NCBI RefSeq assembly: GCF_028368995.1
Contig: NZ_JAQNDL010000003.1
Location: 2,240,001-2,304,000 of the forward strand
Reading direction: 5' to 3'
Origin: Nannocystis bainbridge
GTDB taxonomy: Bacteria; Myxococcota_A; Polyangia; Nannocystales; Nannocystaceae
DNA length: 64,000 nt
Shown: positions 11,040 to 64,000 of the stretch, piece by piece
Layout: every line of letters starts with the position of its first letter
How positions within the stretch are numbered: the first letter of the stretch is position 1
Program-made: the position numbers and the translations under genes
Notes under the pieces: model-generated
The model's input: only the letters and a program-made list of their open reading frames with translations
What the model was told of the DNA's origin: nothing
The model's database searches: none

Positions 11040-11903
11040 TCAGAACTGTCCGCTCAGCACCAGCCCGCCGAGGCTCGGCGCCACGCGCACCGAGCTCCAG
11101 CGCCCACCGCGACCGGCCCGCACGTCACGCGCACCCGTAGCCATCAACGTCGCCCCGAGCACCGCCCCGAACACCGCGGTCACCGCTCCGGCCGCCAGCA
11201 TCGACTCGCCGCGGGCGTGCTGGGCCCGCAGCGGCGCCAGCGCCTCGTCCGAGTAACCTGTCCCGCGGGACAGCTCGTTCGCCGAGAAGCGCTGCACATA
11301 CCAGCCGCTCACCGTCACCCCGAGCCCCACCACTCCGATGCCGAGGAACGCCGCACCCGCGAACATCTGCGCTCGCCCGCGACGCCACCGCGCCGGATCT
11401 CCGTCGCTGCCGACATCGAGCTCGCAGCGCGCCTCCGCGGCGCCCTCGACCTCCGCAGCCTCCTTCGCAGCCGCGCCCGTCGCAATCACATCACCACCAC
11501 GCGAAGCATCTCCCGCCGCGGCCGCACCCGACTCGCTCTCCCCCTCGCCTGTCACGCCACGCGAATCCTCCGCAGCCTCGCCCGCAGCGCGCGCCATCAC
11601 CACGCTCAGCACCGCCCCGGACCCGGTCACCTTCCCCACGCTCGCCCCCTCGGCGCGCGCATCCTCCATCGCTACCTCCGACATCACCGCCGCGGGCGCC
11701 GCCTCGTCCTCATTCCCCGCCCGTGCGGCCTCGACTCGTCGGACCTTCTTCCGCACCGCCTTCGGCTTCACCGCCACCGGCGCCGCCGCCTCGCTCGCCG
11801 CCACCTTCGCAGCCTTCGGAGCCCGCCACTCATGCGCTGGCAGCTCCACCGGGCTCTGCGCCAGCACGCTCACCAAACATGTCCCAAAGACCAGCATCAT
11901 CAT
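11040..11903 (-). CDS. Exported protein with hydrophobic hairpin and terminal aromatic beta-strand (..GGLVLSGQF)
   Basis: Signal peptide, Ala/Glu-rich linker, two Gly-rich hydrophobic segments, C-terminal Phe. Confidence 0.7.
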   Translation of the reverse strand: MMMLVFGTCLVSVLAQSPVELPAHEWRAPKAAKVAASEAAAPVAVKPKAVRKKVRRVEAARAGNEDEAAPAAVMSEVAMEDARAEGASVGKVTGSGAVLSVVMARAAGEAAEDSRGVTGEGESESGAAAAGDASRGGDVIATGAAAKEAAEVEGAAEARCELDVGSDGDPARWRRGRAQMFAGAAFLGIGVVGLGVTVSGWYVQRFSANELSRGTGYSDEALAPLRAQHARGESMLAAGAVTAVFGAVLGATLMATGARDVRAGRGGRWSSVRVAPSLGGLVLSGQF

Positions 11904-11922
11904 GTCCCCTCGACGCGGATTG

Positions 11923-13071
11923 CTAATTAAATTCCGCCCCCGAGAGGATCCACCGCAAGATCACCTGCGCCTCCGCGGCTGCGATCGGCGGCCCTCCGAA
12001 CGGCATCCGCCCGCCCACCGCCGGCGCCGTCAGCACCAGCTTGTGCATCAGGTAGCTGTTCGTCGGCGCGTTCGCATCCACCCGCGGCATGTTCACCTGC
12101 TCCGCCTCGTCCTCGACCAGCTCTTCCCACAGCTTGTCCGGGTCGCGATCGAAGCGCAGGTCGCCCGGCTCCACCCCGTCCACATGGCAGCCCGCCGTCG
12201 CGCAGCGCACGTCCGTGATCGCCAGCACCTGCGTGAACGTGGCCGCTGGTGGGTCGTGCTCGACCACCTCCACCATCACCGCCGCGCTCGTCACCCCGCC
12301 CGCGCTCGCCGTCAGCAGGGCCGTCCCTGGCGACACCCCGAGCAGCACTCCTTGCCCGTCGACGTACAGCTTCAGCTCCTCGCTGCTCTTCCACGTCAGC
12401 GCCGCCTCGATCGGATCGCCCTCCGGGTCCTTCACGATCGCGCTCACCGGCAGCGTCTCGCCGACCTGCACCTGCAGCGGCCCATCGACATCGAGCTCCA
12501 CCTCGCCGACGTCCCCGGCCTCCTGCCCTGGCGCGCACGCGAACACCTCCGCCTCCGGCGCCCCCGCGGCGATCCACGCCGTGATCGTCGCCACCTGTCC
12601 CTCGGACAAGCTGCCACCGATCGGCATCTGCTGCCCCACTGACGGCGCCGGCAGGATCTTCTCGAGCAGGAAGCTGCCCTCCGGATCGCCCGGCGCCACC
12701 CGCAGCACCCCTGGCGCCTGGCTGCTGTCGATCCCGACCAGCGCCGCGTACGCCTCGCCCGCCGCCAGCGACAGCCCTGCCGCCGGCTGACCGCCCGCGT
12801 GGCAGCTGCAGCTCGCCGTGAAGATCGGCTGGACCGCCCCCGGGAAATCACAATCGCCCGGCACCCCGCCGGACGGATCGCCGGGCCCCGTCGTCGGCGC
12901 CCCGCCGGTCGTCGGCACCTCGCCCGACGTCGCGTCCGCCGTCGTGCCGCCCGTGTCCGTCGACCCGCCGTCGGTCTCGGCCCCCGGCAGCGACACCAGG
13001 TTGCAAGCAGAGGAGAGCGCGCCACTCACCAGCAACGCGGAACACGATCGGACCAGACGACGAAGAGTCAT
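11923..13071 (-). CDS. Lipoprotein with two cytochrome-c-like domains flanking an Ig-like domain
   Basis: Lipobox SSAC; VQPIF..SCSCH...PGDPEGSFLL..I...QMP...I.AWIAAGA and RCATAGCH...SYL.HKL...RMP...ILRWILSGA; central Ig-like LTWKSS segment. Confidence 0.8.
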   Translation of the reverse strand: MTLRRLVRSCSALLVSGALSSACNLVSLPGAETDGGSTDTGGTTADATSGEVPTTGGAPTTGPGDPSGGVPGDCDFPGAVQPIFTASCSCHAGGQPAAGLSLAAGEAYAALVGIDSSQAPGVLRVAPGDPEGSFLLEKILPAPSVGQQMPIGGSLSEGQVATITAWIAAGAPEAEVFACAPGQEAGDVGEVELDVDGPLQVQVGETLPVSAIVKDPEGDPIEAALTWKSSEELKLYVDGQGVLLGVSPGTALLTASAGGVTSAAVMVEVVEHDPPAATFTQVLAITDVRCATAGCHVDGVEPGDLRFDRDPDKLWEELVEDEAEQVNMPRVDANAPTNSYLMHKLVLTAPAVGGRMPFGGPPIAAAEAQVILRWILSGAEFN

Positions 13072-13122
13072 TGCTCGCACCTCGAGTGCCCGTTCATCGG
13101 CGGGCGTTACAAATAAAATTTC

Positions 13123-13140
13123 ATTGAGAAGTTTCTCAAT
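13123..13140. promoter_or_regulatory. Palindromic operator ATTGAGAA-GT-TTCTCAAT
   Basis: Perfect 8-2-8 inverted repeat in an AT-rich patch about 50 bp upstream of the cytochrome-like gene. Confidence 0.55.
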
Positions 13141-13234: not shown

Positions 13235-13340
13235 TGTCTCTCGGGACAGGACGCTCGCCCCGCAGCGCCGCGGGCGCATGTCCCAAACAACATGCCCTCA
13301 AGGACAGCAACGACCTCACCGCAACCTGTCCCGAAGACCA
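13235..13340. repeat. Cluster of TGTC-N6-GACA-like units
   Basis: TGTCTCTCGGGACA 13235; TGTCCCAAACAACA|TGCCCTCAAGGACA 13279-13306; TGTCCCGAAGACCA 13327. Confidence 0.75.
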
Positions 13341-13477: not shown

Positions 13478-15331
13478 ATGACATCTCGCCTCTGTCGCCC
13501 CGCGGCCCTCCTCGCGCTCCTCGCTGCCTGCGGCGACGACGGCAATCGCGACACGGCTGCCACTGGCAATCAGCCGTCGACCGCCCCGACCTCGCTCACC
13601 GAGGCCACCACCGGCCCGACCACTGGCGACCTGCCCACCGGTACCACCCAGACCACCGACTCTGGCGCTGCCAGTGAGGCTTCGGCCACCGGCCCCGGCA
13701 CCACCGACGCTCCCGGTACTACCACCGACGCTCCCGGCACCACCACCGACGTCCCTGGCACCACCACCGGCGGCGACGACTGCCTCCCGCCCGACGCCCT
13801 CATCCTCCTCGATCGTACCCAATCGATGCACCGCACCCCCGACGGTCAGACCCCCGTCGACGCCCCCGCCTACGCCAGCAGCAAGTGGTCCCTGGCGATC
13901 GGCGCCATCGAGTCGCTCACCGCCGCGCCGCAGGACGACACCGTGCGCTTCGGCCTCGAGCTGTGGCCGCGCGATCCGGGCGGAGGCGCCTGCGTCACCC
14001 TCGCCGAGCGCATCGAACAGAACAAGACTGCCACCAATCCGCACTGCGAGGCCGGCGAGGTCGTCCTCCCGTCCGCGCTCGGCAACGGCGCCGCGATCGC
14101 CAGCACCCTCGACCCCACCACCACCCTGCTCTGCAACACCACCCCCACCGGCGCCGCCCTCATCACCGCCGGCGAGCACTTCGCCGCCAACAAGGAGCCC
14201 GGCCGCGAGCAGTACGCGATCCTCGTCACCGACGGCGCCGACTGGGACCTCAGCTGCCCCGACCCCTCGCCGCTGACCGCCGTGCAGGACCTCGCCGAGC
14301 AGGGCATCAAGACCTTCATCGTCGGCTTCAACGGCGAAGAGGCGCAGCTGGGCGCCACCGCCTACCTCAACGACCTCGCCTGCGCCGGCCGCACCGCCAA
14401 GGGCTTCCCGGGCCCGTGTGTGCCCACCGCCGACGGCTTCGTCGCCGTCGACGGCGCCAACATCCCGGTGTACCTGCAAGCCGACGACGCCGTCGACCTC
14501 GAGGCCGCCCTGCAGTCGGTCGCCGGCCAGCTCTGTTGCGGCTGCGAGAAGACCTGCGACGCCCCCGAGGTGCTGTTCGCCCTCGACCGCACGCTCAGCA
14601 TGCACCGCACCCCCGACGGCGAGACTCCGGTCGACGCCCCGGCCTACGCCAGCAGCAAGTGGTCGCAGGCGATCGGCGCCATCGAGCAAGTCGTCGGCGG
14701 CGGCCTCGACACCGACCTGCGCTTCGGCCTCGAGCTGTGGCCGCGCGATCCGGGCGGCGGCCAGTGCATCACCCTCGCCGAGCGGATCCTCGACACCAAG
14801 CAGGCCACCAACCCCGCCTGCCAGGACGCCGAGATCCTCGTCCCGCCCGCGCTCGCCAGCGGCGCCGCGATCGCCGACGCCGTCGACCCGCTGACCACCC
14901 TGATCTGCACCACCACCCCGACCGGCACCGCGCTCGAGACCGCCTCGACCTGGCTCGTCGACCACGCCGTGCCCGGCCGCCAGCAATACGTCGTCCTCGT
15001 CACCGACGGCGCTGACTGGGACCTGAGCTGCCCCGACCCGTCCCCGCTGCTCGTCACCCAGAAGCTCGCCGCCGCCGGCATCCGCACCTACGTGGTCGGC
15101 TTCTTCGGCGCCGAGGCCCAGGCCGGCGCGGTCCAGTTCCTCAACGACGTCGCCTGCGCCGGCCAGACCGCCAAGGACTTTGATATTAACTGCAAGCAGA
15201 TGGGCAGCGGCTACCAGGCCCAGGACCCGAACAGCCTGGTCCCGCTGTACCTGCAAGCCGGCAACGGCGAGCTGCCGCAGACGCTGACGACGGTCGCCGA
15301 CGAGATCCTGCAGTTCTGCATCCCCGGCTGA
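13478..15331 (+). CDS. Lipoprotein with Thr-rich linker and two tandem vWA domains
   Basis: Lipobox LAAC; MIDAS-like LDRTQSM / LDRTLSM, TPTG, LVTDG duplicated; HRTPDG.TPVDAPAYASSKWS occurs twice. Confidence 0.88.
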   Translation: MTSRLCRPAALLALLAACGDDGNRDTAATGNQPSTAPTSLTEATTGPTTGDLPTGTTQTTDSGAASEASATGPGTTDAPGTTTDAPGTTTDVPGTTTGGDDCLPPDALILLDRTQSMHRTPDGQTPVDAPAYASSKWSLAIGAIESLTAAPQDDTVRFGLELWPRDPGGGACVTLAERIEQNKTATNPHCEAGEVVLPSALGNGAAIASTLDPTTTLLCNTTPTGAALITAGEHFAANKEPGREQYAILVTDGADWDLSCPDPSPLTAVQDLAEQGIKTFIVGFNGEEAQLGATAYLNDLACAGRTAKGFPGPCVPTADGFVAVDGANIPVYLQADDAVDLEAALQSVAGQLCCGCEKTCDAPEVLFALDRTLSMHRTPDGETPVDAPAYASSKWSQAIGAIEQVVGGGLDTDLRFGLELWPRDPGGGQCITLAERILDTKQATNPACQDAEILVPPALASGAAIADAVDPLTTLICTTTPTGTALETASTWLVDHAVPGRQQYVVLVTDGADWDLSCPDPSPLLVTQKLAAAGIRTYVVGFFGAEAQAGAVQFLNDVACAGQTAKDFDINCKQMGSGYQAQDPNSLVPLYLQAGNGELPQTLTTVADEILQFCIPG

Positions 15332-15335
15332 ACAA

Positions 15336-15377
15336 TGTTTCAAAGGACATGTCCCCCTGGACATGTCCTTCAAATAT
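15336..15377. repeat. Phased 14-bp TGTC-N6-GACA array (3 units)
   Basis: TGTTTCAAAGGACA|TGTCCCCCTGGACA|TGTCCTTCAAATAT. Confidence 0.8.
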
Positions 15378-16995: not shown

Positions 16996-17131
16996 TGTCT
17001 CGACAAACATGTCCTCTTAGACATGTCCAAGAGGACACACGAAAATCACCGCGACCGGCCGGCCGAACAGCCCCGACCACCCGGCAGAGCTCGACCTCTG
17101 CCATGTCCCTTCGGACATGCTTTTTAGAGCA
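16996..17131. repeat. Two phased TGTC-N6-GACA arrays
   Basis: TGTCTCGACAAACA|TGTCCTCTTAGACA|TGTCCAAGAGGACA (16996-17037); TGTCCCTTCGGACA|TGCTTTTTAGAGCA (17104-17131). Confidence 0.85.
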
Positions 17132-17360: not shown

Positions 17361-20027
17361 ATGGTCCGTCCCATCGAACACGCCCGCGCCAGCAAAGCTC
17401 GCCGTTACTGGTTCGCCGTCGGCGTCACCGCCGTCGCGGCCGGGCTGCGCCTGCTCGGCCACACCCTCGAGCCGCAGCCGCCGGTCCTCGTGCTCTTCAC
17501 CGGCGCCGCCAGCCTCTCCGCCTGGTACGGCGGGCTCGGCCCGGCGATGCTCACCATCGCCCTCTCGGTCTTCCTCGACTTCTGGTTCTTCGACCCGCAC
17601 CTCGCCTTCGCCCTCGATCGCTGGACCGACCTGATCGACCTCGGCATCTTCGCCCTGGTCGCCTTCGCCGTCGCCTGGCTGTGTGAATCGCTGCACGCCG
17701 CCCGGCGCGTGATGGAGGTCCGCGCGCGCGAGCTGGCGCTGGTGTCGGCCAACGAGCGGGCCTGGAAGGACCGCTACGAGGCCGCGGTGCGGGCCAGCGG
17801 TCACATCCTCTACGACGACGACCGCGCCGGCGGGCGCATCGTCTTCAGCGGCGCCTGTCTGCCGATCCTCGGCTATGGCGCCGAGGAGCTGGGCGACAGC
17901 CTCGACTGGAGCGCCCTCGTCCACCCCGAGGACCTGGCGCGCTTCTGCCTCTCGCGCCGCGCCGGCGACGGCCTCGAGGTCGAGTACCGCGTCCGTCACC
18001 GCGGCGGGCGATGGATCACCCTCCACGATGTCGGCCAGAAGCTCGTCGACGCCGAGGGCCGCGTCATCCGCGTCGTCGGCTTCCTCAAGGACGTCACCGC
18101 CCAGCGCCGCGCCGAGGCGGCCGTGCGCGCCAGCGAGGAGCGCCTCCGCCTCGCCGTCGAGGCCACCGGTCTCGGCGTCACCTCCACCGTGTTCGAAGCG
18201 GACGGCACTGTCCGCTTCGAGTGGACCCGCGAGGCCCGGCTCGCCTTCGGCGTCGAGGGCGACGGCGAGCTCACGCTCCCCGACCTGCTCGCGCGCGTGC
18301 ACCCCTGCGACGTCGCGGCCGTGCAGGCGGCCGTGCGGGCCGCGCTCGACCCCGCCGGCGACGGCACCGACAACCTCGAGTTCCGCGTCGTCCACCCCGA
18401 CGGCGGCGTGCGCTGGCTCGGCTGTCAGGGCCGCACCACGTTCGACCTCGCCGCCAGCCCGCCGCGACCGCTGCGCAACCTCGGCATCGTCCGCGACGTC
18501 ACCGAGCGGAGGACCACCGCCGAGCAGCTGGCCGAGAGCTTCGCCCTCATCGACGCCCTGGTCTTCAAGGCCCCGATCGGCATGGCCTTCATCGACCGCG
18601 GCTACCGCTTCGTCCGCGTCAACGAGAAGCTGGCCGAGTTCAACGGCATCGCCGCCGCCGAGCACATCGGCCGCACCGTCGCCGACGTCTTGCCCGACCT
18701 GTGGCCGCGGCTCGAGCCGGTCCTGCGCGACGGCCTGCGCGACGGTCGCGAGCGCGTCAACACCGAGGTCGAGGGCCCCACCGCGGCCCAGCCGGGCCGA
18801 CGCCACTGGCTCGTGAGCCAGTACCCGATCCGCGCCGGCGACCGCCTGCTCGGCATCGGCGTCACCGTCGTCGAGACCACCGACCAGAAGCGCATCGAGG
18901 CCTCCTTGCGCGAGGCCGACCAGCGCAAGGACACCTTCATCGCCACCCTCGCCCACGAGCTGCGCAACCCGCTGGCGCCGATCCGCAACGCCCTCGCGCT
19001 GCTCGGCGTCGCCCGCGACGCGCCCGAGCGGGCCGCCAGCCTCGCCGTCATCGGCCGCCAGGTCGAGCAGATGGCCCACCTCCTCGACGACCTGCTCGAC
19101 GTCTCTCGCATCACCCGCGGCCGCCTCACCCTGCGCCGCGAACTGGTCACCCTCGACGCGATCATGGCCCGCGCCGCCGAGACCGCCAACCCGTGGATCG
19201 TCGCGCGCCGCCACAGCTTCGCCGTCGACATCCCGGACGCCCCCGTCCTCCTCGACGCCGACCCGATCCGCCTCGCGCAGGTGTTCTCCAACCTCTTCAC
19301 CAACGCCGCCAAGTACACCGATCCCGGCGGCACCATTCGCGTCACCGCCAGGGTCCACGGCGAGCGCGTGCAGATCGGCGTCGCCGACACCGGGGTGGGG
19401 ATCGCCGCCCAGCACCTGCCGCGCGTGTTCGAGATGTTCTCGCAGGTCGGCCCCTGCTCGAGCCGCGGGGACGGCGGCCTCGGCATCGGCCTCGCGCTGG
19501 CCCGCGGCCTCATCGAGATGCACGGCGGCGCGATCACGGCCCACAGCCCCGGTCCCGGCCGCGGCAGCGAATTCATGGTCGAGCTGCCGCTCGCCGCCCA
19601 GGCCCACGCCAGCGGTCCCCACGCGCCGCTCGGCCCCGCGCGCGAGGGGCCGTCGACCGGCCGGCGGATCGTCGTCGCCGACGACAACGTCGACAACGCC
19701 GACACCCTGGCGATGCTGCTCGAGGCGCTCGGCCACGAGGTCTTCACCGTCTACGACGGCGAGGCGGCCGTGCGCGCGTGCGCCGAGGTCCGCCCCGACG
19801 TCGTCTTCCTCGACATCGGCATGCCGCGGCGCGACGGCTACGAGGTCTGTCGGTGGATCCGCCAGCAGCCGTGGGGCGGCGCCACGCTGGTCATCGCCCA
19901 GACCGGCTGGGGTCAGGACGAAGATCGCCGGCGCGCCGCCGCGGCCGGCTTCGATCATCACCTCACCAAGCCCGCCGACCCCGACCGGCTGCTCGCCCTG
20001 CTGGACGCGCAGCCGACGGCCGCGTGA
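17361..20027 (+). CDS. Hybrid sensor histidine kinase (DUF4118-like TM, 3 PAS, HisKA, HATPase, REC)
   Basis: LAHELRNPL, NLFTNAAKYT, DTGVGI, GLGIGL, REC VADDN..FLDIGMP..HLTKP. Confidence 0.93.
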   Translation: MVRPIEHARASKARRYWFAVGVTAVAAGLRLLGHTLEPQPPVLVLFTGAASLSAWYGGLGPAMLTIALSVFLDFWFFDPHLAFALDRWTDLIDLGIFALVAFAVAWLCESLHAARRVMEVRARELALVSANERAWKDRYEAAVRASGHILYDDDRAGGRIVFSGACLPILGYGAEELGDSLDWSALVHPEDLARFCLSRRAGDGLEVEYRVRHRGGRWITLHDVGQKLVDAEGRVIRVVGFLKDVTAQRRAEAAVRASEERLRLAVEATGLGVTSTVFEADGTVRFEWTREARLAFGVEGDGELTLPDLLARVHPCDVAAVQAAVRAALDPAGDGTDNLEFRVVHPDGGVRWLGCQGRTTFDLAASPPRPLRNLGIVRDVTERRTTAEQLAESFALIDALVFKAPIGMAFIDRGYRFVRVNEKLAEFNGIAAAEHIGRTVADVLPDLWPRLEPVLRDGLRDGRERVNTEVEGPTAAQPGRRHWLVSQYPIRAGDRLLGIGVTVVETTDQKRIEASLREADQRKDTFIATLAHELRNPLAPIRNALALLGVARDAPERAASLAVIGRQVEQMAHLLDDLLDVSRITRGRLTLRRELVTLDAIMARAAETANPWIVARRHSFAVDIPDAPVLLDADPIRLAQVFSNLFTNAAKYTDPGGTIRVTARVHGERVQIGVADTGVGIAAQHLPRVFEMFSQVGPCSSRGDGGLGIGLALARGLIEMHGGAITAHSPGPGRGSEFMVELPLAAQAHASGPHAPLGPAREGPSTGRRIVVADDNVDNADTLAMLLEALGHEVFTVYDGEAAVRACAEVRPDVVFLDIGMPRRDGYEVCRWIRQQPWGGATLVIAQTGWGQDEDRRRAAAAGFDHHLTKPADPDRLLALLDAQPTAA

Positions 20028-20066
20028 TGACATGTCCCGAAGGACATATCATCAATCACCGCCGCC

Positions 20067-21122: not shown

Positions 21123-21737
21123 ATGCGCTGCGCGTGCTCCTTGCTGGCCCTCTTCCTTGCATCCGGCTGCAGCGACGACGGTGGGGGCACCACCTCGCAG
21201 ACCTCGCAGTCCACCGTTGCGAGCGCCACCACCTCCACATCGAACGACGCGACTTCGGGCGGCATGCCGACCAGCACCGGCGGCACGACCGGCACCACGG
21301 CCGAGCCCGGTAGTACGGGTTCTAGCGGCGTCAGCAGCGAGATCTCCTCGACCTCCGCCGCTTCCACCACCACCGGCCCCGGCGCCACCACCGACGATCC
21401 CGCCTGTCCCCCGGTCAAGGGCGAGTACAACGATTGCACCGACCCGCGCGGCGACATCGACAACAAGGCGTGCAAATGGATGGGTGACGGCGAGAACGGC
21501 TTCATCACTTGTCTGAACGCGGCAGGCATGACGGGCGCCTCCACCTGTTCGCTCATCAACTGCGAGCTCGACTGTCACTGCTTCGACGCCCCCGCGACTG
21601 GCACCGCGACCAGCATTTGCAAGCCGAACGCCACCGACAAGGGTGACAGCGCCTGCGTGCTCGACTGCTCGGACGGCGCCACCTGCCCTGACGGCATGGT
21701 CTGCGACAACGACACCTGCTTCTGGCCGGCCCCGTGA
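21123..21737 (+). CDS. Ser/Thr-rich, Cys-rich lipoprotein
   Basis: Lipobox ASGC; C-terminal CVLDCSDGATCPDGMVC. Confidence 0.85.
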   Translation: MRCACSLLALFLASGCSDDGGGTTSQTSQSTVASATTSTSNDATSGGMPTSTGGTTGTTAEPGSTGSSGVSSEISSTSAASTTTGPGATTDDPACPPVKGEYNDCTDPRGDIDNKACKWMGDGENGFITCLNAAGMTGASTCSLINCELDCHCFDAPATGTATSICKPNATDKGDSACVLDCSDGATCPDGMVCDNDTCFWPAP

Positions 21738-22171
21738 TCGCCGTGCGTCGCCCGCTGCTCCTCCTCGCGTTCGCTCTCGGCTGCCCGCATCTGGTCCCGC
21801 CTGCCGCGCCGAAGGAGAACGGTCTACCGGCCGTCGACCCCCGCGAGCAGCCGCTCCCCGAGCCCGTGCGGGTCGCCTCGGCCCGGGCCCACGGTGGTTG
21901 CGACACCGGGGCCCAGTGCGTCGAGCACCTCGACCCCGACCATTCGGCCGACGACGGCCGTCGCACCTGCGAGCAGGACGGCGCTCGCTGGCTCACCGGC
22001 GCCTGCCCGCACCGCCGGGCCCACAGCGCCTGCATCACCACCTATTTCCTCGTGTTCGACTACGGCAAGCTGCGCGCCGACGAGTTCGGCAACCCGCTCC
22101 ACCGCGACCTCGCCGGCGCCCGTGAGGCCTGCTTGCGCGAGCAGGGCGAGTTCTACGAGCTCACCCCGTGA
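21734..22171 (+). CDS. Small Cys-containing lipoprotein
   Basis: Lipobox ALGC; GTGA overlap with the upstream stop. Confidence 0.75.
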   Translation: MIAVRRPLLLLAFALGCPHLVPPAAPKENGLPAVDPREQPLPEPVRVASARAHGGCDTGAQCVEHLDPDHSADDGRRTCEQDGARWLTGACPHRRAHSACITTYFLVFDYGKLRADEFGNPLHRDLAGAREACLREQGEFYELTP

Positions 22172-22187: not shown

Positions 22188-22233
22188 GACATGTCCCTCA
22201 CGACATGTCCTTCATGACATGTCCCCGTCGCCA
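22188..22233. repeat. Phased 14-bp TGTC-N6-GACA array (3 units)
   Basis: GACA|TGTCCCTCACGACA|TGTCCTTCATGACA|TGTCCCCGTCGCCA. Confidence 0.85.
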
Positions 22234-46227: not shown

Positions 46228-47151
46228 ATGACAACAATCGATCCGGTCAAGGTTGCCGCGTTCGTGCGCGTGGTCGAGGCGGAGAGCTTCACCGCCGCCG
46301 CGCAGCTGCTGGGCCTGCCCAAGTCGTCGGTCAGCCGCAGCGTCTCCCGCCTCGAGGAGGACCTCGGCGTGCGGCTGCTGCAGCGTACCACGCGGCGCCT
46401 GCACCTCACCGACGCCGGCAGCGCCTTCTATCAAAAGGCCCGCGGCGCCCTGTCGGCGCTCGAGGAGGCCGCGCTGACCGCCGCCGACCTCGGGCACGAG
46501 CCGCGCGGCACCGTGCGCATCACCGCCCCGGTCGACCTCGGCGAGTTCCTCGCCGAGCCGCTGACCCGGTTCGTGCGCGAGCACCCGCAGATCCAGGTCG
46601 ACCTGGTGCTGACGGCGCGGATCGTCGACATGGTCCGCGAGGGCTTCGACCTGGCCCTTCGGGCATCTCGCCTCAAGGACTCGAGCCTGATCGCGCGCAA
46701 GCTCGGCAGCTTCGCCGACGGCCTTTACGCCGCGCCGGGCTACCTCAAGCGCAGCGGCACGCCGACCAGCCTGGCCGAGCTGGCCCACCACGAGTGCGTG
46801 CTGTTCCGCGCCCGCGGCGGCCGCAGCACCTGGACGCTGCGCGGGCCCAAGGGCGAAGAGCACGTCGAGGTCACCGGCTCGATCAACGTCGACGACCTCT
46901 CCTTCGTCGTCCACGCCGCCGAGGCCGGGGCCGGCGTCGCCTACCTGCCGCACGTGATCGCGGCCCGCTCGGTCGCCGCCAAGCGCCTCGTGCGGGTCCT
47001 GCCCGAGCACTGCTGGACCCACGCCGACCTGTCGCTGGTCCTGCCCTCGGGCCGCCATGTCCCCACGCGCGTGGCCCTGCTGCGCGATTTCCTGGCCGAG
47101 TCGCTCAAGGCGACGCTCGGCGCCCACCGCCACACCAAGCCGTCGGCGTGA
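46228..47151 (+). CDS. LysR-family regulator (CrgA/DmlR-like), divergent from doxX
   Basis: FVRVVEAESFTAAA..LG.PKSSVSR.V..LE..LGVRLLQRTTR, GTVRITAP, EGFDLALR. Confidence 0.95.
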   Translation: MTTIDPVKVAAFVRVVEAESFTAAAQLLGLPKSSVSRSVSRLEEDLGVRLLQRTTRRLHLTDAGSAFYQKARGALSALEEAALTAADLGHEPRGTVRITAPVDLGEFLAEPLTRFVREHPQIQVDLVLTARIVDMVREGFDLALRASRLKDSSLIARKLGSFADGLYAAPGYLKRSGTPTSLAELAHHECVLFRARGGRSTWTLRGPKGEEHVEVTGSINVDDLSFVVHAAEAGAGVAYLPHVIAARSVAAKRLVRVLPEHCWTHADLSLVLPSGRHVPTRVALLRDFLAESLKATLGAHRHTKPSA

Positions 47152-47165
47152 CGCGGAGCAAGACC

Positions 47166-48551
47166 ATGCGATGGGTGAGGCTCGGCCTGGCGACGCTCGC
47201 CACCGGTTGTTTTTATCACCCGACGGGCACCCCGGCCGCGGAGACGACTTCGACCACGACGTCGCCGACCACGGCCGTCGAGCCCGGCTCGTGCGGTGAT
47301 TTCGTCAAGGACGACGGCGAGGCGTGCGACGGCGGGCCGGCCGGCGACGGCGTGTGCACGCCGTCCTGCACGTACGACGTGTGCGGCGACGGTTACGTCG
47401 GCAAGGGCGAGGGCTGCGACGGCGGCGAGAATTGCGTCGACTGCGAGCTTGTCACCTGCGGCGACGGCATCATCGACCCGGGCGAGGCGTGCGACGACGG
47501 CGACGCCGACGACACCGACGATTGCCTCGCCACCTGCAAGAGCGCCGGCTGCGGCGACGGCTTCGTGCACGCCGGCGCCGAGCAGTGCGACGACGGCAAC
47601 GACCTCGACACCGACGCCTGCGTCACCGGTTGCAAGCAGGCGACCTGCGGCGACGGCTTCGTGCTCGAGGGCAGCGAGTTCTGCGACGACGGCAACGACC
47701 TCGACGACGACGACTGCCCCAACAGCTGCGCTGCGCCCGGGTGCGGCGACGGCGTCGTCTCGCCGGGCGAGGCGTGCGACGACGGCAACACCGACGAGAC
47801 CGACGCCTGCCTCAACACCTGCGGGCCCAACGTGTGCGGCGACGGCAAGCTGCACATGGGCGTCGAGGCGTGCGACGACGGCAACCTCGACCCGTTCGAC
47901 GCCTGCCGCGAGGACTGCACCTTCAACATCTGCGGCGACGGCTACCTCGACCCCGAGAGCGAGCTCTGCGACCACGGCCCGCGCAACGGCGACGACCCCG
48001 CCAAGGCCACGTGCCGCACCAATTGCACGCGCAGCGGCTTCCTCGTGTTCGTCAGCTCGCAGCTGCTCGCCCCGGGGGCCGACTTCGAAGCGATCTCCGG
48101 CGGCGACGAGCGCTGCGGCGAGCTGGCGGCCGCGGGCGAGCTCGACATCCGCGGCGGCCGGTGGAAGGCGTGGCTCGGCGACGGCAGCGTCGGCCCCGTC
48201 GAAAACTTTCACAAGAGCGCGATCCCCTATTACACCCTGCACGGCGGCGCGACCGCCAAGGTCGCCGACAACTGGAGCGACCTGGCCGACGGCACCCTCG
48301 ACAACCCGATCGACGTCACCGACCTCGATCAGCAGTTCGCCGCGGGCGTCGCCTGCGACCAATTGCGCGCGGTCTGGACCGGCGTCCGCAGCAACAACAC
48401 CTACGGGGGCAACTGCGCGAAGTGGAGCTGGAACGGCCCGGCCGTCCAGGCCCTCACCGGCGACCTGACCCGCAAGGACGCCGCCTGGACCGAAGCCTGC
48501 TCGCTCGGCTGCACCGAGACGGCGCGCCTCTATTGCTTCGAGCAGCCGTGA
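47166..48551 (+). CDS. Lipoprotein with Myxococcus Cys-rich repeats and DUF1554-like C-terminal domain
   Basis: Lipobox ATGC; repeated CGDG...E.CDDGN; VFVSS..., WKAWL, RLYCFEQ. Confidence 0.88.
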   Translation: MRWVRLGLATLATGCFYHPTGTPAAETTSTTTSPTTAVEPGSCGDFVKDDGEACDGGPAGDGVCTPSCTYDVCGDGYVGKGEGCDGGENCVDCELVTCGDGIIDPGEACDDGDADDTDDCLATCKSAGCGDGFVHAGAEQCDDGNDLDTDACVTGCKQATCGDGFVLEGSEFCDDGNDLDDDDCPNSCAAPGCGDGVVSPGEACDDGNTDETDACLNTCGPNVCGDGKLHMGVEACDDGNLDPFDACREDCTFNICGDGYLDPESELCDHGPRNGDDPAKATCRTNCTRSGFLVFVSSQLLAPGADFEAISGGDERCGELAAAGELDIRGGRWKAWLGDGSVGPVENFHKSAIPYYTLHGGATAKVADNWSDLADGTLDNPIDVTDLDQQFAAGVACDQLRAVWTGVRSNNTYGGNCAKWSWNGPAVQALTGDLTRKDAAWTEACSLGCTETARLYCFEQP

Positions 48552-48609: not shown

Positions 48610-49746
48610 TCACTTCCGCGACCCGGCCATCGCGCGGATGCAGTGCGCGAGCGCCTCGCGGAGCGTCGCGCGGACGGTCAGCCCTGTCGTCTCGAGGCCG
48701 AGGTCCACGATCGTCTGGGCGATGTTCGGGTGGATGCCGGTGACCACGCTCTCGGAGCCGAGCAGGCGGACTGCGCCGACCAGGTCGAGGAGGTGGCCCG
48801 CGGTGCCGGTGTCGACCTCCTCGACGCCCGTGAGGTCGAGGATGGCGAAGCGGGCGCGGGTCTTGGTCACCGCCTGCAGCAGGTTGTCCATCAGCTCGGA
48901 CGCGCGGTTGCTGTCGATCGCGCCGATGATCGGCACAGTCAGCACCCGGTCCCACACCTCGATGATCGGCGTCGAAAGCTGCCGGATCATCTGTTGTTGC
49001 TGCTCGATCTGCAGCAGCTTCTCCCGCAGCGCCTTCTCGCCCTCGCGCTGCTCCGTCACGTTGAGCGACAGCGCCACGATCAGCTCGATCGCCCCGTCGT
49101 CGCCGCGCACCGGGATCATCCAATTTTCGAAGCTCGCCCCGTGCACCTCGGTCGAGGTGTGTTGCAGCGCCCCGTCCAGGGCGGCGTCGAGCGGCTCCGG
49201 CTCGAGGTTCTTGTAGAGCTCGCGGATGTTGCGCCCGACCAGGGCGTGCTGGGGCATGCCGATGCTCTCGAGCCCCTTGCCCCGGTGGTATGTACATAGC
49301 CCGTCGTGCTGCATCGTCCACACGATGATGTTCATGTTCTCGATGATCGCCCGCAGCATCGCCCCCTCGAGGCGGAGCGTCGTGTCGCGGGTGAACCGCT
49401 CGCTGATGTCCTGGCCGTAGCAGGCGGCGGAGACCACCGCGCCGGCGGCGTCGCGCTCGAGCTGGCAGGTCCATTCGCAATGGACCTGAACCCCGTCCTT
49501 GCGCGTGTGCGTGGCCGTCTGCGGGCCGTCCTCGGCGAGGCTGGCCCAGAAGTCGCCCTCGGTCGGCAGCAGCTGCTCGATCGCGGCCCCGAGCGCCTCG
49601 GCGGCCGGCACCGCGAACACCCGGGCGGCGGCGCCGTTCCACACAGTGATCCGCCGCTGGGCGTCGAGCTCGACGGCGATGAACGGCGCACCACGCAGAA
49701 GTCGGGCCTCCCGCGCCTCGGCGGCGGGATCGGAGGAGCTTGCCAT
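48610..49746 (-). CDS. PAS-PAS-STAS protein (RsbR-like), third paralog
   Basis: WNGAAARVF, RKDG..V.CEW, IRQLSTPIIEVWD, ILDLTGVEEVDT. Confidence 0.9.
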   Translation of the reverse strand: MASSSDPAAEAREARLLRGAPFIAVELDAQRRITVWNGAAARVFAVPAAEALGAAIEQLLPTEGDFWASLAEDGPQTATHTRKDGVQVHCEWTCQLERDAAGAVVSAACYGQDISERFTRDTTLRLEGAMLRAIIENMNIIVWTMQHDGLCTYHRGKGLESIGMPQHALVGRNIRELYKNLEPEPLDAALDGALQHTSTEVHGASFENWMIPVRGDDGAIELIVALSLNVTEQREGEKALREKLLQIEQQQQMIRQLSTPIIEVWDRVLTVPIIGAIDSNRASELMDNLLQAVTKTRARFAILDLTGVEEVDTGTAGHLLDLVGAVRLLGSESVVTGIHPNIAQTIVDLGLETTGLTVRATLREALAHCIRAMAGSRK

Positions 49747-53342: not shown

Positions 53343-53921
53343 ATGCGCCGTCGTCCCTTGCTCGCCGCAGCCTGCAGCTTCTTGGTCCCGACCCGCGCGC
53401 TGGCGCGGCCGCCCGCGGTCGACGTCGCGGCCAGCAACGCCGAGCTGTTCGCGCGCCTTCGCGCCCCCGGCGCCCCGCTGCGGGACTGGCAGTGGATCGT
53501 CGTGCATCACACCGCGGCCGAGTGGGCGACGCTCGAGGGCATCGACCGCTACCACCGCAAGCGCTTCGGCGACCCGCTCGGCGCCGAGTATCACTTCGTG
53601 ATCCACAACGGCAAGAAGCGGCCCGCGGGGCTCGTCGAGGCCGCGCGCTGGCGCTACCAGGAGCCCGCCGCCCACCTCTTCAAGCCCGAGAACGCCCCCG
53701 CCTCGATCGCCGTGTGCCTGATCGGCAACTTCGAGGAGCGGCCGCTGCCCGCGCCCATGCTCGGCGCCCTCGTCGACCTCACCGTCGCCCTCATGCGCGA
53801 CTGCTCCATCCCCGCAGAGCGCGTCAGCACCCACCGCGTCGTCGACGACAAGCTGACCCAGTGCCCTGGCAAGCAGTTCCCGCGGGCCGAGTATTTGCGG
53901 CGGATCGGCGCAGGGACATGA
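53343..53921 (+). CDS. N-acetylmuramoyl-L-alanine amidase (Amidase_2/PGRP-like)
   Basis: IVVHHTA, YHFVI, AVCLIGNF, HR.V....T.CPG. Confidence 0.88.
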   Translation: MRRRPLLAAACSFLVPTRALARPPAVDVAASNAELFARLRAPGAPLRDWQWIVVHHTAAEWATLEGIDRYHRKRFGDPLGAEYHFVIHNGKKRPAGLVEAARWRYQEPAAHLFKPENAPASIAVCLIGNFEERPLPAPMLGALVDLTVALMRDCSIPAERVSTHRVVDDKLTQCPGKQFPRAEYLRRIGAGT

Positions 53922-53958
53922 CCCTTCGGACAGGTCACCGTCGAGCCGCGTTCGCCCC

Positions 53959-55368: not shown

Positions 55369-55571
55369 TCCTCATTTCTTGACCTCGATGGTTCGCGGCT
55401 TCATTTCTGCTGGCACGACCCGACCCGAGTTTTTTAAATCTGTCCTCAAGGACATCTCATGACAATCGCGCCGACTGAACGTCAGCGACCCTGACCGGGG
55501 CGAGGGGTTATTCGCCGGGCCAGGGTCTCGACAGGACTTTCAAGGCGGACGCTCTCGATCTGCCACGGCGA

Positions 55572-56695: not shown

Positions 56696-58141
56696 TCACC
56701 CGCCGCCGGGCGCGCCCGCGGCGGCCTTGCCCGCACCTGTCTTTGCGGACATCTGACTGCGCAGGTCGAGCAGCGCCGTGCGCAGGCCCTCCTCTACCAC
56801 CGGGTGGTAGAACGGCAGGCGCAGCGCCTGCTCGACCGTCAGCGAGCTCTGGATCGCCCACGCCAGCAGGTGCGCCAGGTGTTCGCCGGCGGGCCCCGCC
56901 AATTCGGCCCCGAGCAGCGCCCCGGTCGCGTCCGAGCCGTACACGCGCAGCAGCCCGTGGTTCTTGCCCATCACCCGCGCGCGGCCCTGGTCGCCGAAGT
57001 CGACCTGGCCGATCGAGCAGGTCGCCAGGTCGAGCGAATTGAACCGGCGGCCGACGAACGCCACCTGCGGGTCGGTGAACACGATCCCGAGCGGCGTGCG
57101 GCGCTCGCCCGGCAGCACCGTCGGGAACGACGCCGCGTTGCGCCCGGCGATCTGGCCGTCGTCGATCGCCTCGTGCAGCAGCGGGTGCAGCCCGGTCGCG
57201 TCGCCGGCCAGGAACACCGGCGCCTCGCCGCACTGCAGCGTGGTCGCGTCGAGCTCGCGCGGCCGGCCCTTGTCGTCGAGCTCGACGCCCGCGCGCTCCA
57301 GCTCGAGCCCTTTCAGCCGCGGCTCGCGGCCGGTCGCCGCCAGCACCATCGGCCATGTCCCTTCGGACACCTCGCCGTCCTCGCCGCGAAACCTGACCCA
57401 CACCCCGTCGACCCGCGCCTCGGCCGCCTCGAGCTTCGAGCGGGTGTGCAGCGTCATCTCGCGCGCCAGCCCGGACTTGGCCGCCGCCAGCACCGCCGGG
57501 TCGCGGATGCCGGCCACCTTGCCGTCGGCGCAAATCACCGTCACGCGCGCCCCGAGCCGCGCCAGCGCCTGCCCGAGCTCGACCCCGATCGGCCCCGCGC
57601 CGACCACCAGCAGGCGCTCGGGGATCGCCTCGAGCTCGAACACCTGGTCCGAGTCGATCACCCGCGGCGACTCCAGCTTCGCCAGCAGCGGCGGCACCTT
57701 CACCACCGACCCCGTCGCCACCACCACCGCCTTGCGCGCCTTGACCCGCAGGTCATCGCCGACCGCGAGCTCGTTCGTCGCCACGAAGCGGGCTCGACCG
57801 TCGATGAGCAGCCCGTTCGCGGCGAGCCGACGGACCTCCTTCAACTGATACTCGACGAAGCGGTCGCGCTCGCGGCGGACGCGGCCCATCACCTCGCCGG
57901 GGACCACGCGCGGCTCGCCCGCGTGCACGCCGAAGCGCTTGGCCTCGCGGACCGCGTGCGCCGCCTCGCCGGCCGCGATCAGCAGCTTCGAGGGCATGCA
58001 GCCGACCCGCGCGCACAGGGTCCCGAGCGGCCCCGGATCGATCGCCACCGCCTGCGCCCCCGCCTTCTCCGCCGCTCGCCGGGCGTTGAGCCCCGCCGTC
58101 CCCACGCCGATCACCGCGACATCGACCGTCTGCTCGCGCAT
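56696..58141 (-). CDS. Pyridine nucleotide-disulfide oxidoreductase (dihydrolipoyl dehydrogenase-like)
   Basis: GVGTAG, CARVGCMPSK, GAGPIGVE, FTDPQ, FYHPVVEEG. Confidence 0.92.
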   Translation of the reverse strand: MREQTVDVAVIGVGTAGLNARRAAEKAGAQAVAIDPGPLGTLCARVGCMPSKLLIAAGEAAHAVREAKRFGVHAGEPRVVPGEVMGRVRRERDRFVEYQLKEVRRLAANGLLIDGRARFVATNELAVGDDLRVKARKAVVVATGSVVKVPPLLAKLESPRVIDSDQVFELEAIPERLLVVGAGPIGVELGQALARLGARVTVICADGKVAGIRDPAVLAAAKSGLAREMTLHTRSKLEAAEARVDGVWVRFRGEDGEVSEGTWPMVLAATGREPRLKGLELERAGVELDDKGRPRELDATTLQCGEAPVFLAGDATGLHPLLHEAIDDGQIAGRNAASFPTVLPGERRTPLGIVFTDPQVAFVGRRFNSLDLATCSIGQVDFGDQGRARVMGKNHGLLRVYGSDATGALLGAELAGPAGEHLAHLLAWAIQSSLTVEQALRLPFYHPVVEEGLRTALLDLRSQMSAKTGAGKAAAGAPGGG

Positions 58142-62162: not shown

Positions 62163-62239
62163 GCGATTCCGCGCGAAAATAACCTCACGCGCGTTAGTTT
62201 TTATACTTTTATTGTAAGTTTTGTCGTATTCTCGACGGC

Positions 62240-63229
62240 ATGGCTTCGACGCTTTGCCGCCGAGTCTTCTGCTTCACCCTCGCCTGCGCCTGCGGTCCCC
62301 AACCCGCCGACGAGACCACCGGCACCACCGATACGCCCGGCACCACCGATACGCCGGGCCTCACCACCGGCACGACGAGCACCACCGGCGACACCACCCT
62401 CGTCGAGACAACCTCGACGGTCACCGGCAATCCCACCACCGCGCATCCCACCACCACGAGTCCCACGCTCACGACGGACAGCGACGATTCGGGCGTGACC
62501 GGCGGCGACTTCGTCATCACCCCGGACGGCGGCGGCAGCATTTGTGACGATGCGGTACGCCTCTCGCAATGCGATCCGTGGAACCAGAATTGCCCCCGCG
62601 GTGAGAAGTGCTCGCCCTCGAACCGCGGCTGCGACGAGCTCGAGATGAACCGCTGCGACGAGCTCCCGCGCCAGCCCGTCCCGGTCGGCGGCGCCTGCAC
62701 CTCCGAGAATCATCCGCTCAGCGGCCGAAACGACTGTGACATCGGCGCCACCTGCTGGTTCGTCGATCCCGCAAGCCTGACCGGGACCTGCGTCAGCCTG
62801 TGCCACGGCTCGCCCGAAGCCCCCGACTGCACCCACGTGCCTGGCACCACCTGCGTGTTCGTCCACGACAACGATTACGCCCCGCTGTGCCTGCCGACCT
62901 GCGATCCGCTCGAGAAGACCTGTCCCGCAGGACATCATTGTCACCCGACCCCGCACGCCCCCGAGGCGTTCGCCTGCATCCCCGACACCTCGGCGCCGGT
63001 CGGCGCGGCCTTCGAACCGTGCAGCACTACCAACTGCGCCCCCGGCCTGCTCTGCGCCGAGCCCGAAGCCGCCGCCGTCGAATGTGCCCCCGACACCAAT
63101 TGCTGCACCCCCCTGTGCGACCTCGACGCCCCCGCCTGCCCCGGCGCCGGCCAGTCCTGCCTGCCCTACTACGAGATCGGCCAGGCCCCCGCCGGCCTCG
63201 AGAACGTCGGCCGCTGCGCCCTGCCGTGA
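62240..63229 (+). CDS. Thr-rich, Cys-rich lipoprotein
   Basis: Lipobox ACAC; CDPWNQNCPRGEKC, CLPTCDPL, CCTPLCDL. Confidence 0.85.
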   Translation: MASTLCRRVFCFTLACACGPQPADETTGTTDTPGTTDTPGLTTGTTSTTGDTTLVETTSTVTGNPTTAHPTTTSPTLTTDSDDSGVTGGDFVITPDGGGSICDDAVRLSQCDPWNQNCPRGEKCSPSNRGCDELEMNRCDELPRQPVPVGGACTSENHPLSGRNDCDIGATCWFVDPASLTGTCVSLCHGSPEAPDCTHVPGTTCVFVHDNDYAPLCLPTCDPLEKTCPAGHHCHPTPHAPEAFACIPDTSAPVGAAFEPCSTTNCAPGLLCAEPEAAAVECAPDTNCCTPLCDLDAPACPGAGQSCLPYYEIGQAPAGLENVGRCALP

Positions 63230-63454
63230 TTCGCCCACCCATGATTCAGGCTCGCCGGCGCGAATGCCCACATCCCCGCGAGCCCACGCTACCGAGCTCC
63301 GGGCTCTCGGTCCCCACCGTCGGCGGGGCCCTCGACCTCCTCCCGCAATGAAGGGCCGCGCCCCGGCGCGCAGGTCCGCGCGTCCGGGTGGTGCGCAGGT
63401 TTTTCCGCACCGCGCGAAGTTGACTGCCGCCGGCCGCTGACCGACGATCGGTGG

Positions 63455-64000
63455 GTGCATGGCCTGCTCCGCCTCGTCCCCTGTCTCGCCCTGACCGCGT
63501 GCATCGAGCGCGCGCCTGCCTCGGAAGACAGCGACAGCGGCGGCTCGACCACGTCCCCCGTCAGCACCACCGCCGCAACCGACGACTCGGCCTCCGGCGG
63601 CACCGACGACTCGGCCTCCGGCGGCACCGACGACGCGGCCACCGACGGCGTGTCGGGCGCGCACGCGGGCCCCTGCAAGCCGATCGAGGGCAACGACTGT
63701 CCCACGGGACATGTCTGCTGTTCCGACGATCCGGCGACCGTTCAGGGCCTCCTCCCCAATTATTTTAAAATGGGCGTGGTCGACGACCAGATCGGCACCC
63801 CATTGTTCTCCGACGCCAACAACGACCGCAGCTACTGGGGTTATTGCATCGACACGAGCGAGTTCGTCAGCCCGCTCGGGAACGGCTGCCCGGTCCCGTG
63901 CAATCCGACCTGGACGTCGGAGCAGAACTCGACGATCTGCGGCGGCTCCCGGTGCTGCCCGTTCACCGCCGTCGACCCGGCCAAGGACTGCGTCGTCGAC
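63455..64000 (+). CDS. Cys-rich lipoprotein (runs off window end)
   Basis: Hand translation from GTG at 63455: VHGLLRLVPCLALTACIER, (TDDSASGG)x2, DCPTGHVCCSDDP, GCPVPCNPTW; open to 64000. Confidence 0.8.
   Translation, partial: MHGLLRLVPCLALTACIERAPASEDSDSGGSTTSPVSTTAATDDSASGGTDDSASGGTDDAATDGVSGAHAGPCKPIEGNDCPTGHVCCSDDPATVQGLLPNYFKMGVVDDQIGTPLFSDANNDRSYWGYCIDTSEFVSPLGNGCPVPCNPTWTSEQNSTICGGSRCCPFTAVDPAKDCVVD

Follow-up and report, generated by a model that had tools for sequence, protein, structure and literature searches.

What kind of force would write the same palindromic word into unrelated genes, in different frames and with codons that the genome rarely uses? The question is raised by a 64,000-nt stretch of DNA from Nannocystis bainbridge (the window; positions 2240001-2304000 of a contig in an 11.05-Mb genome of five contigs, hereafter G000), in which the 14-bp palindrome TGTCY-N4-RGACA occurs 23 times in exact form, with 0.11 copies expected. 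Not one of 100 dinucleotide shuffles of this 70.4% G+C sequence reached 23 copies. An earlier note, made from the letters of the window, had described copies of this motif inside coding sequences (CDSs) and had suggested that selection, or a biased repair or conversion process, acts at the DNA level on top of the protein code. The reading that we favour, with a probability of about one half, is that TGTCC-N4-GGACA is a lineage-specific, hyper-abundant word of double-stranded DNA (dsDNA), kept by selection or drive through a putative sequence-specific reader.

The motif and its abundance

The consensus TGTCY-N4-RGACA is the tighter description of a motif whose looser form is TGTC-N6-GACA. Genome-wide, the degenerate form TGTCY-N4-RGACA is present in 2,982 copies and the strict form TGTCC-N4-GGACA in 1,987, against 12.8 expected (155-fold), and the same arms separated by N2, N3, N5 or N6 give 3-16 copies only. 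A scan of all 5-Nx-5 palindromes showed this motif to be the sole hyper-abundant family of its kind in the genome; in the same scan ACATG-N10-CATGT was counted 1,472 times, with 9.5 expected. The phasing is strictly 14 bp, CATG-N10-CATG being found 3,736 times versus 72 for N9 and 262 for N11. As CATG recurs with this strict period, the extended unit is a 10-bp palindrome, GGACATGTCC (956 copies genome-wide), followed by a free 4-nt spacer, and the 14-mer arises where two such cores meet.

Within G000, the motif is depleted in 50-kb windows of low GC (r = 0.50), and its density is 0.02 copies per kb in the four largest genes. No description of the motif in bacteria was found in the main texts of a limited literature collection, where gapped notations had no match and the matches to ACATGTCC were p53 sites or primers only.

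Codon choice is overridden within genes

Genes were predicted with a codon-likelihood caller trained on long open reading frames (ORFs) with a high G+C content at third codon positions (GC3), which gave 8,194 genes and a coding fraction of 85%. Predicted CDSs hold 1,162 of the 2,982 copies (39%), 1,790 being intergenic and 30 straddling a boundary; with 0.124 copies per kb of CDS versus 1.07 per kb of intergenic DNA, the word is nine times denser outside genes. It is nevertheless far more frequent inside genes than the encoded proteins call for. In the 7,672 of 8,194 predicted genes used for shuffling (score 40 or more) there are 1,128 copies, 32-fold more than the 35.2 +/- 6.4 left after within-gene synonymous shuffling (ten replicates). 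Shuffling the order of codons leaves 7.2, and the difference between the two shuffles (35.2 vs 7.2) means that motif-compatible peptides are themselves enriched about 5-fold. All three frames are used, with 96, 452 and 580 copies in frames 0, 1 and 2, respectively. Strongly coding flanks are found on both sides of 527 of the 1,162 CDS copies, which are spread along genes, and 23 genes begin on the ATG of an exact motif.

The effect is most direct in the spelling of individual peptides, where the earlier note had suspected a departure from background codon use, and the departure turns out to be large. Cysteine and glycine are spelled TGT..GGA in 65 of 150 CPxG[HQ] peptides (0.41 expected), the spelling TGT..GGA CAT is found in 18 of 32 CPxGH peptides (0.01 expected) and the motif, as nTG TCC..nGG ACA, in 287 of 621 [MVL]Sx[GRW]T peptides (0.35 expected), which places the three tests 160- to 2,000-fold above expectation. 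The codons concerned are rare, with relative uses in the genome of 0.10 for TGT, 0.027 for GGA, 0.022 for ACA and 0.10 for CAT; the corresponding values for CAA, TTG, GCA and TAT are 0.08, 0.042, 0.021 and 0.12.

Conservation between relatives and origin by substitution

The window has syntenic counterparts in five genomes of the same genus, at about 88-89% nucleotide identity, and two of these genomes, G001 and G010, were aligned to G000 over 480 kb each. Among the 154 sites of this region, 75 and 54, respectively, were fully aligned from -30 to +44 nt, and codon positions were tabulated for the sites whose whole -30..+43-nt window lies inside a predicted CDS (54 and 39). Third codon positions in the arms of the motif differ at 13/206 positions in G001 and 11/146 in G010 (6-7.5%), versus 232/1080 and 164/780 (21%) in the flanking 30 nt on either side (Fisher p = 3.6e-8 and 4.8e-5). 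First and second codon positions go in the same direction, more weakly. The contrast is stronger still for third positions ending in A or T, which differ at 8/67 and 7/52 positions in the arms (12-13.5%) versus 3286/5534 and 2936/4804 elsewhere in aligned CDS (59-61%; p = 1.6e-15 and 2.1e-12). Not one of the ten arm positions differs at 36/56 and 25/40 CDS sites, versus 43-45% of control 14-mers from aligned CDS. The excess of synonymous conservation that the earlier note had asked about is therefore present and, as codon choice is also off background, a force at the nucleic-acid level atop the protein code is supported, much as that note had proposed.

At the ten sites of the window discussed below, the arms are mostly unchanged between relatives and the 4-nt spacer and the bases adjoining the motif vary. 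The flanks of CDS copies diverge by 16.5% and 13.6% in the two relatives, versus a genome average of about 11%, so these copies sit in fast-evolving protein segments.

Copies in CDSs could have arrived by insertion, and this origin is ruled out for those that were checked. In the acyl-CoA ligase gene of the window (43839-45479), comparison with 12 distant homologues reveals no indel across a run of three motif units (HMP-QTTLPNAHVYEDIL in the ligase, e.g. HMPKE-EIPNLLCYEELV in a homologue); substitutions, including ones that changed amino acids, therefore produced the array. It adjoins a conserved HMP (CAC ATG CCC) that is already core-like. The non-conserved CDS sites tell the same story: 16 rows, representing 10 distinct sites in two relatives, have no inserted bases and differ by substitutions only, apart from one 3-nt deletion.

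Gene ends and intergenic arrays

Outside genes the motif is distributed unevenly: convergent intergenic regions hold 2.47 copies per kb, tandem ones 1.04 and divergent ones 0.41. An exact copy is found in 33% of convergent spacers, and copies peak 0-50 nt past stop codons. In 80 genes a variant unit beginning with TGACC starts exactly on the stop codon, these being 80 of the 261 such units counted between -100 and +300 nt of a stop. Arrays reach 7-8 cores and often fill an entire convergent spacer. The spacers within one array differ, so that arrays are not recent copies, and spacer sequences are orientation-symmetric.

Distribution among genomes

The array signature TGTCC-N4-GGACATGTCC was found in each of ten other genomes belonging to the genus and in 1 of 20 genomes of other genera. 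The plain 14-mer is restricted to one clade: it is enriched in 3 of 17 sampled genera of the family (479-3,312 copies per genome in genus g1, 259-483 in g2 and 167-1,175 in g4), the other 14 genera having 2-37 copies versus 1-27 for a reversed-pattern control. In 400 kb of G013, a genome of g4, there are 23 copies, 16 of them in predicted CDS, mostly solitary and of a CTGTC..GACAG flavour. Motif 'dialects' in sister genera were looked for and not found: 400 kb of G013 yielded no strong palindrome besides the same motif, and in 400 kb of G011 the only one was a CRISPR repeat. Gene calls for G011 were left out, since the 71%-GC codon model gave a coding fraction of 0.54. The repeat in question forms a long CRISPR-like array on contig C24 of G011 (about 886,770-900,500), with dozens of units at a period of 69-76 nt and a repeat of about 36 nt that contains TCCCCCGGTTT[GCT]GGGGGA; its inner palindrome was counted 86 times.

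A proposed reader of double-stranded DNA and its rivals

The arms of the motif are fixed at thousands of loci and the spacer is free, the phasing is strict and copies in CDSs are symmetric with respect to strand. Together with the synonymous constraint, the origin by substitution, the restriction to one clade and the depletion in atypical DNA, this argues for a trans-acting protein that reads dsDNA and would act through selection or molecular drive. The reader would most simply be a symmetric dimer, lining up side by side on phased arrays. Copies would be kept, or continually restored, wherever the harm is small: between genes they would pile up as arrays behind stops, especially where genes converge, and inside genes point substitutions would create them, forcing the rare codons TGT, GGA, ACA, CAT and TCC and sometimes altering amino acids in poorly conserved protein segments. 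Selection could act, for example, on chromosome structuring or on a barrier or terminator at gene ends; molecular drive could consist in preferential uptake or recombination of motif-bearing DNA, as proposed for the highly iterated palindrome HIP1 and for DNA uptake sequences. A more ambitious version, to which we subscribe only tentatively, is that of a recognition system of this Myxococcota clade, a counterpart of HIP1 and uptake sequences in which a cooperative dimeric dsDNA reader of 14-bp-phased GGACATGTCC cores marks native DNA and shapes gene ends. Such a system would have rewritten about 1,100 coding sites, filled a third of convergent spacers and supplied dozens of stop codons.

Several observations weigh against a dsDNA reader. 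No such protein was identified among the candidates checked (RAYT, a small GIY-YIG protein and LexA, judged by the lexA promoter). Motif loci are irregularly spaced along the genome (coefficient of variation 1.17), which leaves an evenly spaced structural role unsupported, and the gene boundaries are those of our own caller, not of a curated annotation. Intergenic arms are only mildly conserved, with 14-20% differences versus 21-25% in their flanks (intergenic spacers differ at 43-48%, the alignment register in arrays being uncertain), and in orthologous spacers arrays are usually present with copy numbers and lengths that vary between species; not every single copy between genes is thus maintained. 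Conservation is expected under selection and under neutral biased repair alike, and the data do not separate the two options that the earlier note had left side by side. Finally, paired intergenic cores form strong hairpins of about -19 kcal/mol, and for this reason the intergenic arrays may act at least partly at the RNA level, as hairpins at transcript ends. A strand asymmetry at pair 3/12 of the palindrome likewise runs in the direction expected for G.U pairs in RNA: downstream of stops, the U.G-compatible TGTCC-N4-GGGCA outnumbers its mirror TGCCC-N4-GGACA by 91:51 in tandem regions and by 186:93 in convergent halves (p = 0.001 and 3e-8).

If the motif were an RNA-level element altogether, adjacent GGACAUGUCC cores would pair at the 3' ends of transcripts into a stem of 10 bp capped by a 4-nt loop. 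Such a hairpin would terminate transcription (perhaps in both directions), stabilise the 3' end or be bound by an RNA-binding protein or an RNase, and genic copies would act within mRNAs. This explanation is possible but doubtful. It would account for the peak behind stop codons and for the order of densities, convergent over tandem over divergent, as well as for the folding of paired cores (-19.5 and -18.8 kcal/mol, z scores -6.8 and -6.4), the 2:1 predominance, on the sense strand behind genes, of the variant that allows U.G at pair 3/12 and two double substitutions between species that are compensatory changes from C-G to T-A at pair 5/10. Base-pair covariation, however, is weak or absent in general. 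G2 and C13 hardly ever vary, positions 3 and 12 are loose, and at pair 5/10 the counts (CG 1987, CA 461, TG 407, TA 127) give an odds ratio of about 1.3, a pattern that speaks for half-sites being recognised and not for bases being paired. Pairs 4/11 and 5/10 have no consistent wobble preference, and on the sense strand of CDSs U.G is not preferred over C.A at pair 5/10 (147 vs 176) or at pair 3/12 (91 vs 132). At the latter pair the ratio is thus reversed inside CDS, and either RNA pairing or a transcription-linked mutation bias could underlie it; the asymmetry downstream of genes could itself reflect a bias of this kind. A GC-rich hairpin and a position behind the stop are present, as in an intrinsic terminator, but no T-run was found behind the arrays. 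Copies in CDSs fold weakly (-5.7 to -8.4 kcal/mol, z scores -1.3 to -1.9), Rfam has no match in the window, a plain hairpin would not need arms of one sequence fixed at thousands of loci, and divergent intergenic regions are still about 240 times denser in the motif than chance.

The dsDNA reader has further rivals. A neutral repair or conversion process of the very-short-patch-repair type could turn near-motif sequence into motif, its abundance being a by-product, and would likewise give excess conservation and an override of codon preference. The copy at 34768, which differs from its non-motif orthologues by five clustered changes in 17 nt between near-identical flanks, and a small heavy tail of arm differences (three or more at 4 of 56 sites) are what such a process might leave. 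We nonetheless think it improbable, as the strict 14-bp phasing, the placement behind stops and the concentration between convergent genes are left unexplained. Known patch-repair systems have sites of 4-6 bp, not a gapped dyad of 14 bp, and for HIP1 a conservation of like kind has been taken to favour selection over biased repair. (The HIP1 argument is that of PMC5861425.) More improbable still is a mobile or selfish palindromic element that copies itself, also into genes, whether a repetitive extragenic palindromic (REP) sequence or bacterial interspersed mosaic element (BIME) with its REP-associated tyrosine transposase (RAYT), a miniature inverted-repeat transposable element, an Ssn-associated repeat or an element of the Rickettsia palindromic element (RPE) type. 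Mobility would be in keeping with the large number of copies, with units of alternating orientation arrayed at gene 3' ends and with array lengths that vary between species. It would also fit arms that, on inspection of the consensus, contain no stop codon in any frame, so that arrays can be read through (e.g. the linker at 34459-34500). But the genome, which is 90.5% complete, has no match to Y1_Tnp (PF01797), its only small GIY-YIG protein belongs to the UPF0213 type, lacks motif flanks and has homologues in genera with and without the motif, CDS copies stand at orthologous positions without indels, having arisen by substitution, and the differing spacers speak against recent copying of arrays. 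That CPxGH, MSxGT and VxxDI are simply functional peptides, or that the motif is an effect of composition, can be dismissed for practical purposes. CPxG does recur as a peptide feature in the Cys-rich ORFs at 62240 and 63455, but copies are found in three frames, on both strands and in unrelated proteins, and the window shuffles with their 0.11 copies, the 32-fold codon-level excess over synonymous shuffles, the codon counts at the peptides and the ninefold higher density outside genes refute a protein-level or chance origin.

Comparison with known repeats

The closest parallel is HIP1 (GCGATCGC) of cyanobacteria, which passages of PMC5861425 describe as a palindrome in 15- to 300-fold excess that is found in ORFs as well as between them and is conserved beyond background, with no peptide or RNA role found and a function long unresolved; part of the text of PMC13756078 proposes it as a recognition sequence for DNA uptake. 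Like HIP1, the present motif is over-represented (155-fold, where HIP1 is at least 15-fold), lies in CDS as well as between genes, is not accounted for by codon usage and is more conserved between genomes than the background. Unlike HIP1 it belongs to another phylum, has another sequence and is a gapped 5-N4-5 dyad, not a contiguous octamer; it forms 14-bp-phased arrays that abut stop codons, and its density outside genes is nine times that inside. HIP1 has a periodic distribution on a scale of 10-90 kb; for the present motif the dispersion of locus spacing was measured (coefficient of variation 1.17). Its sequence differs from GCGATCGC, which embeds targets of the orphan methyltransferases that are central to HIP1, and it is thus not HIP1 itself, only the same kind of phenomenon.

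DNA uptake sequences, the uptake signal sequence of Pasteurellaceae and the DNA uptake sequence of Neisseriaceae, are also lineage-specific and reach copy numbers in the hundreds to thousands, with between one and two thirds of the copies in ORFs. According to passages of PMC2817400, on which this account rests, they raise the frequency of the peptides that they encode, favour poorly conserved genes and residues, are absent from recently acquired genes and use reading frames in correlation with preferred codons. The motif resembles them in being lineage-specific (3/17 genera), present in thousands of copies and depleted in low-GC windows, in having CDS copies whose flanks diverge 1.5-2 times as much as the genome on average and in the roughly 5-fold enrichment of compatible peptides. 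Uptake sequences, for which competent cells have an uptake preference, are, however, asymmetric words that use preferred codons, whereas the present motif is a palindrome that forces rare ones and forms phased arrays.

REP elements are located at gene 3' ends. With BIMEs, they are abundant palindromic units, regularly spaced and alternating in orientation within composite arrays, as described in part of PMC2817692. The present motif is similarly abundant, palindromic and arrayed at gene 3' ends, but its unit is shorter (10-14 bp) and, unlike extragenic REP, 39% of its copies are in CDS. A REP/RAYT system was rejected, since PF01797 has no match in G000 (90.5% complete); the control search matched 6 of 14 genomes. 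Hairpin repeats related to dRS3 and NTS occur in many phyla and modulate transformation, and the NTS/Ssn repeats are tied to the ssn gene, usually flank it and are described as surrounding genes (passages of PMC11893778), unlike the present motif, which is also found inside coding sequence. The genome has two GIY-YIG matches, in proteins of 795 and 99 aa. An Ssn/NTS system was rejected as well, as the 99-aa protein, which matches UPF0213 structures (PDB 1ZG2 and 1YWL) and has no NCBIfam family, lacks motif flanks (the nearest copy is 313 bp away) and has homologues in genera without the motif. The 795-aa protein we take to be UvrC-like. A LexA box (CTGT-N8-ACAG) was likewise discarded: the region upstream of lexA has a ..GTTCAG-type box, presumably the myxobacterial type of LexA box, and no TGTCC-N4-GGACA. 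RPEs, finally, are palindromic insertions of 100-150 bp that stand in frame in protein-coding genes and add peptide segments; the present palindrome shares with them its place inside protein-coding genes but, unlike RPEs, the checked CDS copies show no insertion.

Outside cyanobacteria and the classical competent pathogens, the motif is a clear case of protein-coding DNA that carries a second code, with 43-62% of compatible peptides spelled in codons whose use is otherwise 2-10%. If its reader were found, the question of what hyper-abundant palindromes are for, which HIP1 poses too, would become testable in a second, unrelated lineage, and the motif could help in practice to tell native from acquired DNA and to locate gene 3' ends in large, natural-product-rich genomes. 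Genetic manipulation might also improve; HIP1 in transforming DNA raised the efficiency of cyanobacterial transformation, as reported in part of bioRxiv 10.1101/2024.09.10.611283. Annotators should note that the arrays leave all frames open and may end up inside ORFs.

Copies within genes of the window

Predicted CDSs contain 9 of the 23 exact copies of the window and 14 are intergenic. The earlier note had counted ten exact copies in CDSs; all ten do lie in ORFs and fit TGTC-N6-GACA, but the one at 34459 (TGTCCCCCGCGACA) has this loose form only, so that nine fit TGTCY-N4-RGACA. As the note had it, they are in different frames (offsets 1, 1, 2, 1, 1, 2, 1, 1, 0 and 0 in order of position) and in genes on both strands. 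The first, TGTCCCGCGGGACA at 11259-11272, is an exact motif read as L S R G T (frame offset 1) in ORF 11040-11903(-), which has a weak coding score and no Pfam match; four relatives keep its arms, with a variable spacer.

Four of the copies lie in the 988-aa ORF 33798-36764(+), whose C-terminal part is spermine-synthase-like (Pfam). The loose copy at 34459 and an exact one at 34487 make up an array-like stretch (34459-34500), translated ..GHVPPSMSPATVLKGHVPGDMSS.., in a hypervariable linker that has a local GC3 of 0.69 and is poorly alignable, with indels. The array leaves the ORF open in 5 of the 6 genomes compared, G007 changing frame, and the linkers of relatives carry the same array peptides (GHVP, DMS) in differing numbers. 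The translated motif array, in which GAC ATG TCC reads D M S, thus appears to drive variation in the length of this protein linker. In G001 the linker (orthologous to 34440-34700) is expanded into repeated ..SPAAASPGPADMS.. peptides, and the G007 orthologue matches in three different frames, either as a frameshifted gene or through assembly errors. Further along, the exact motif at 34768-34781 (V S F G T) is shared by G000, G001 and G003, where G005, G007 and G010 have TGGCC..GGC[GA]CC, and that at 36499-36512 (M S W E T) is invariant across all five relatives although the bases directly upstream vary.

The acyl-CoA ligase gene (AMP-binding in Pfam, plus strand) has three phased 14-nt units at 44284-44325, the last of which (44312-44325) is an exact copy; by hand count, 8, 7 and 10 of 10 arm positions match. 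The codon run that the earlier note read there, CAA ACG ACA TTG CCG AAC GCA CAT GTC TAT, is present in a gene with a GC3 of 0.958, contains six rare codons in ten and is almost invariant in the five relatives. A pyridine nucleotide-disulphide oxidoreductase gene (Pfam), 56696-58141(-), carries two exact motifs, one near its 3' end (56738-56751, M S A K T) and one at 57356-57369 (V S E G T) that is unchanged in four of five relatives. The last two exact copies, at 62921-62934 in the Cys-rich ORF 62240-63229(+) and at 63698-63711 in the Cys-rich ORF 63455-64264(+), encode C P A G H as TGT CCC GCA GGA CAT and C P T G H as TGT CCC ACG GGA CAT, the spelling reported in the earlier note.

Arrays between genes of the window

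Three arrays were said to start exactly on a TGA stop, and each of these stops, at 2208, 41694 and 53919, indeed ends an ORF and opens a variant unit of the form TGACC-N4-RGACA. At 2208-2265 a degenerate 14-bp-phased array of 3.6 copies in a convergent intergenic region has as its first unit TGACCCGAAGGACA, which supplies the TGA of ORF 1530-2210(+). The two-unit array at 41694-41721, also convergent, places its TGACC unit on the TGA of ORF 40845-41696(+) and continues with an exact unit at 41708-41721 (RNA fold -7.9 kcal/mol). The variant unit TGACCCTTCGGACA at 53919-53932 starts on the TGA of the amidase-domain ORF 53358-53921(+).

Other units lie behind a gene. An intergenic pair of GGACATGTCC cores at 15345-15373, 14 nt past the stop of ORF 13478-15331(+), is the one that folds at -19.5 kcal/mol (z score -6.8). 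The motif at 20028-20046 comes directly after the stop of ORF 17361-20027(+) and fills a convergent spacer of 39 bp, and three GACATGTC cores with a 14-bp period (2.7 copies) occupy 22188-22225, past ORF 21734-22171(+). Between convergent ORFs, 36769-36976 is a tandem array with a 38-bp period and five exact copies set in longer palindromes (GCTGTCCCGAGGGACAGC), folding at -18.8 kcal/mol (z score -6.4); exact-copy counts over 36765-36991 are 5, 3, 2, 0 and 2 in G000 and four relatives. This array shows that whole blocks of motif plus spacer can also duplicate.

The remaining intergenic copies are three exact ones at 17010, 17024 and 17104 in a divergent region (17010-17117), solitary exact copies in a divergent (13235-13248) and a convergent (55441-55454) region, and an exact copy with an adjoining half unit in a tandem region (29197-29215).

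Other observations in the window

Within 4300-11000, about 6.8 kb cannot be aligned to any of the five syntenic relatives and the ORFs have weak coding scores (18-81); none of the 23 exact copies of the window lies there. This segment looks like a recently acquired insertion in G000. An 18-bp tandem repeat at 5919-6049 (7.3 copies, 92% matches, unit CCTGTCTCAGTGCCGCTC) is without a confident gene. ORF 47148-48551 contains repeats with periods of 96 and 189 nt (47456-47942), rich in TGC, GAC and GGC codons, which presumably resemble a cysteine-rich repeat common in secreted proteins of myxobacteria. The minus-strand ORFs 38298-39446, 39546-40655 and 48610-49746 cross-match each other's orthologues at 69-77% DNA identity and therefore form a local family of paralogues.

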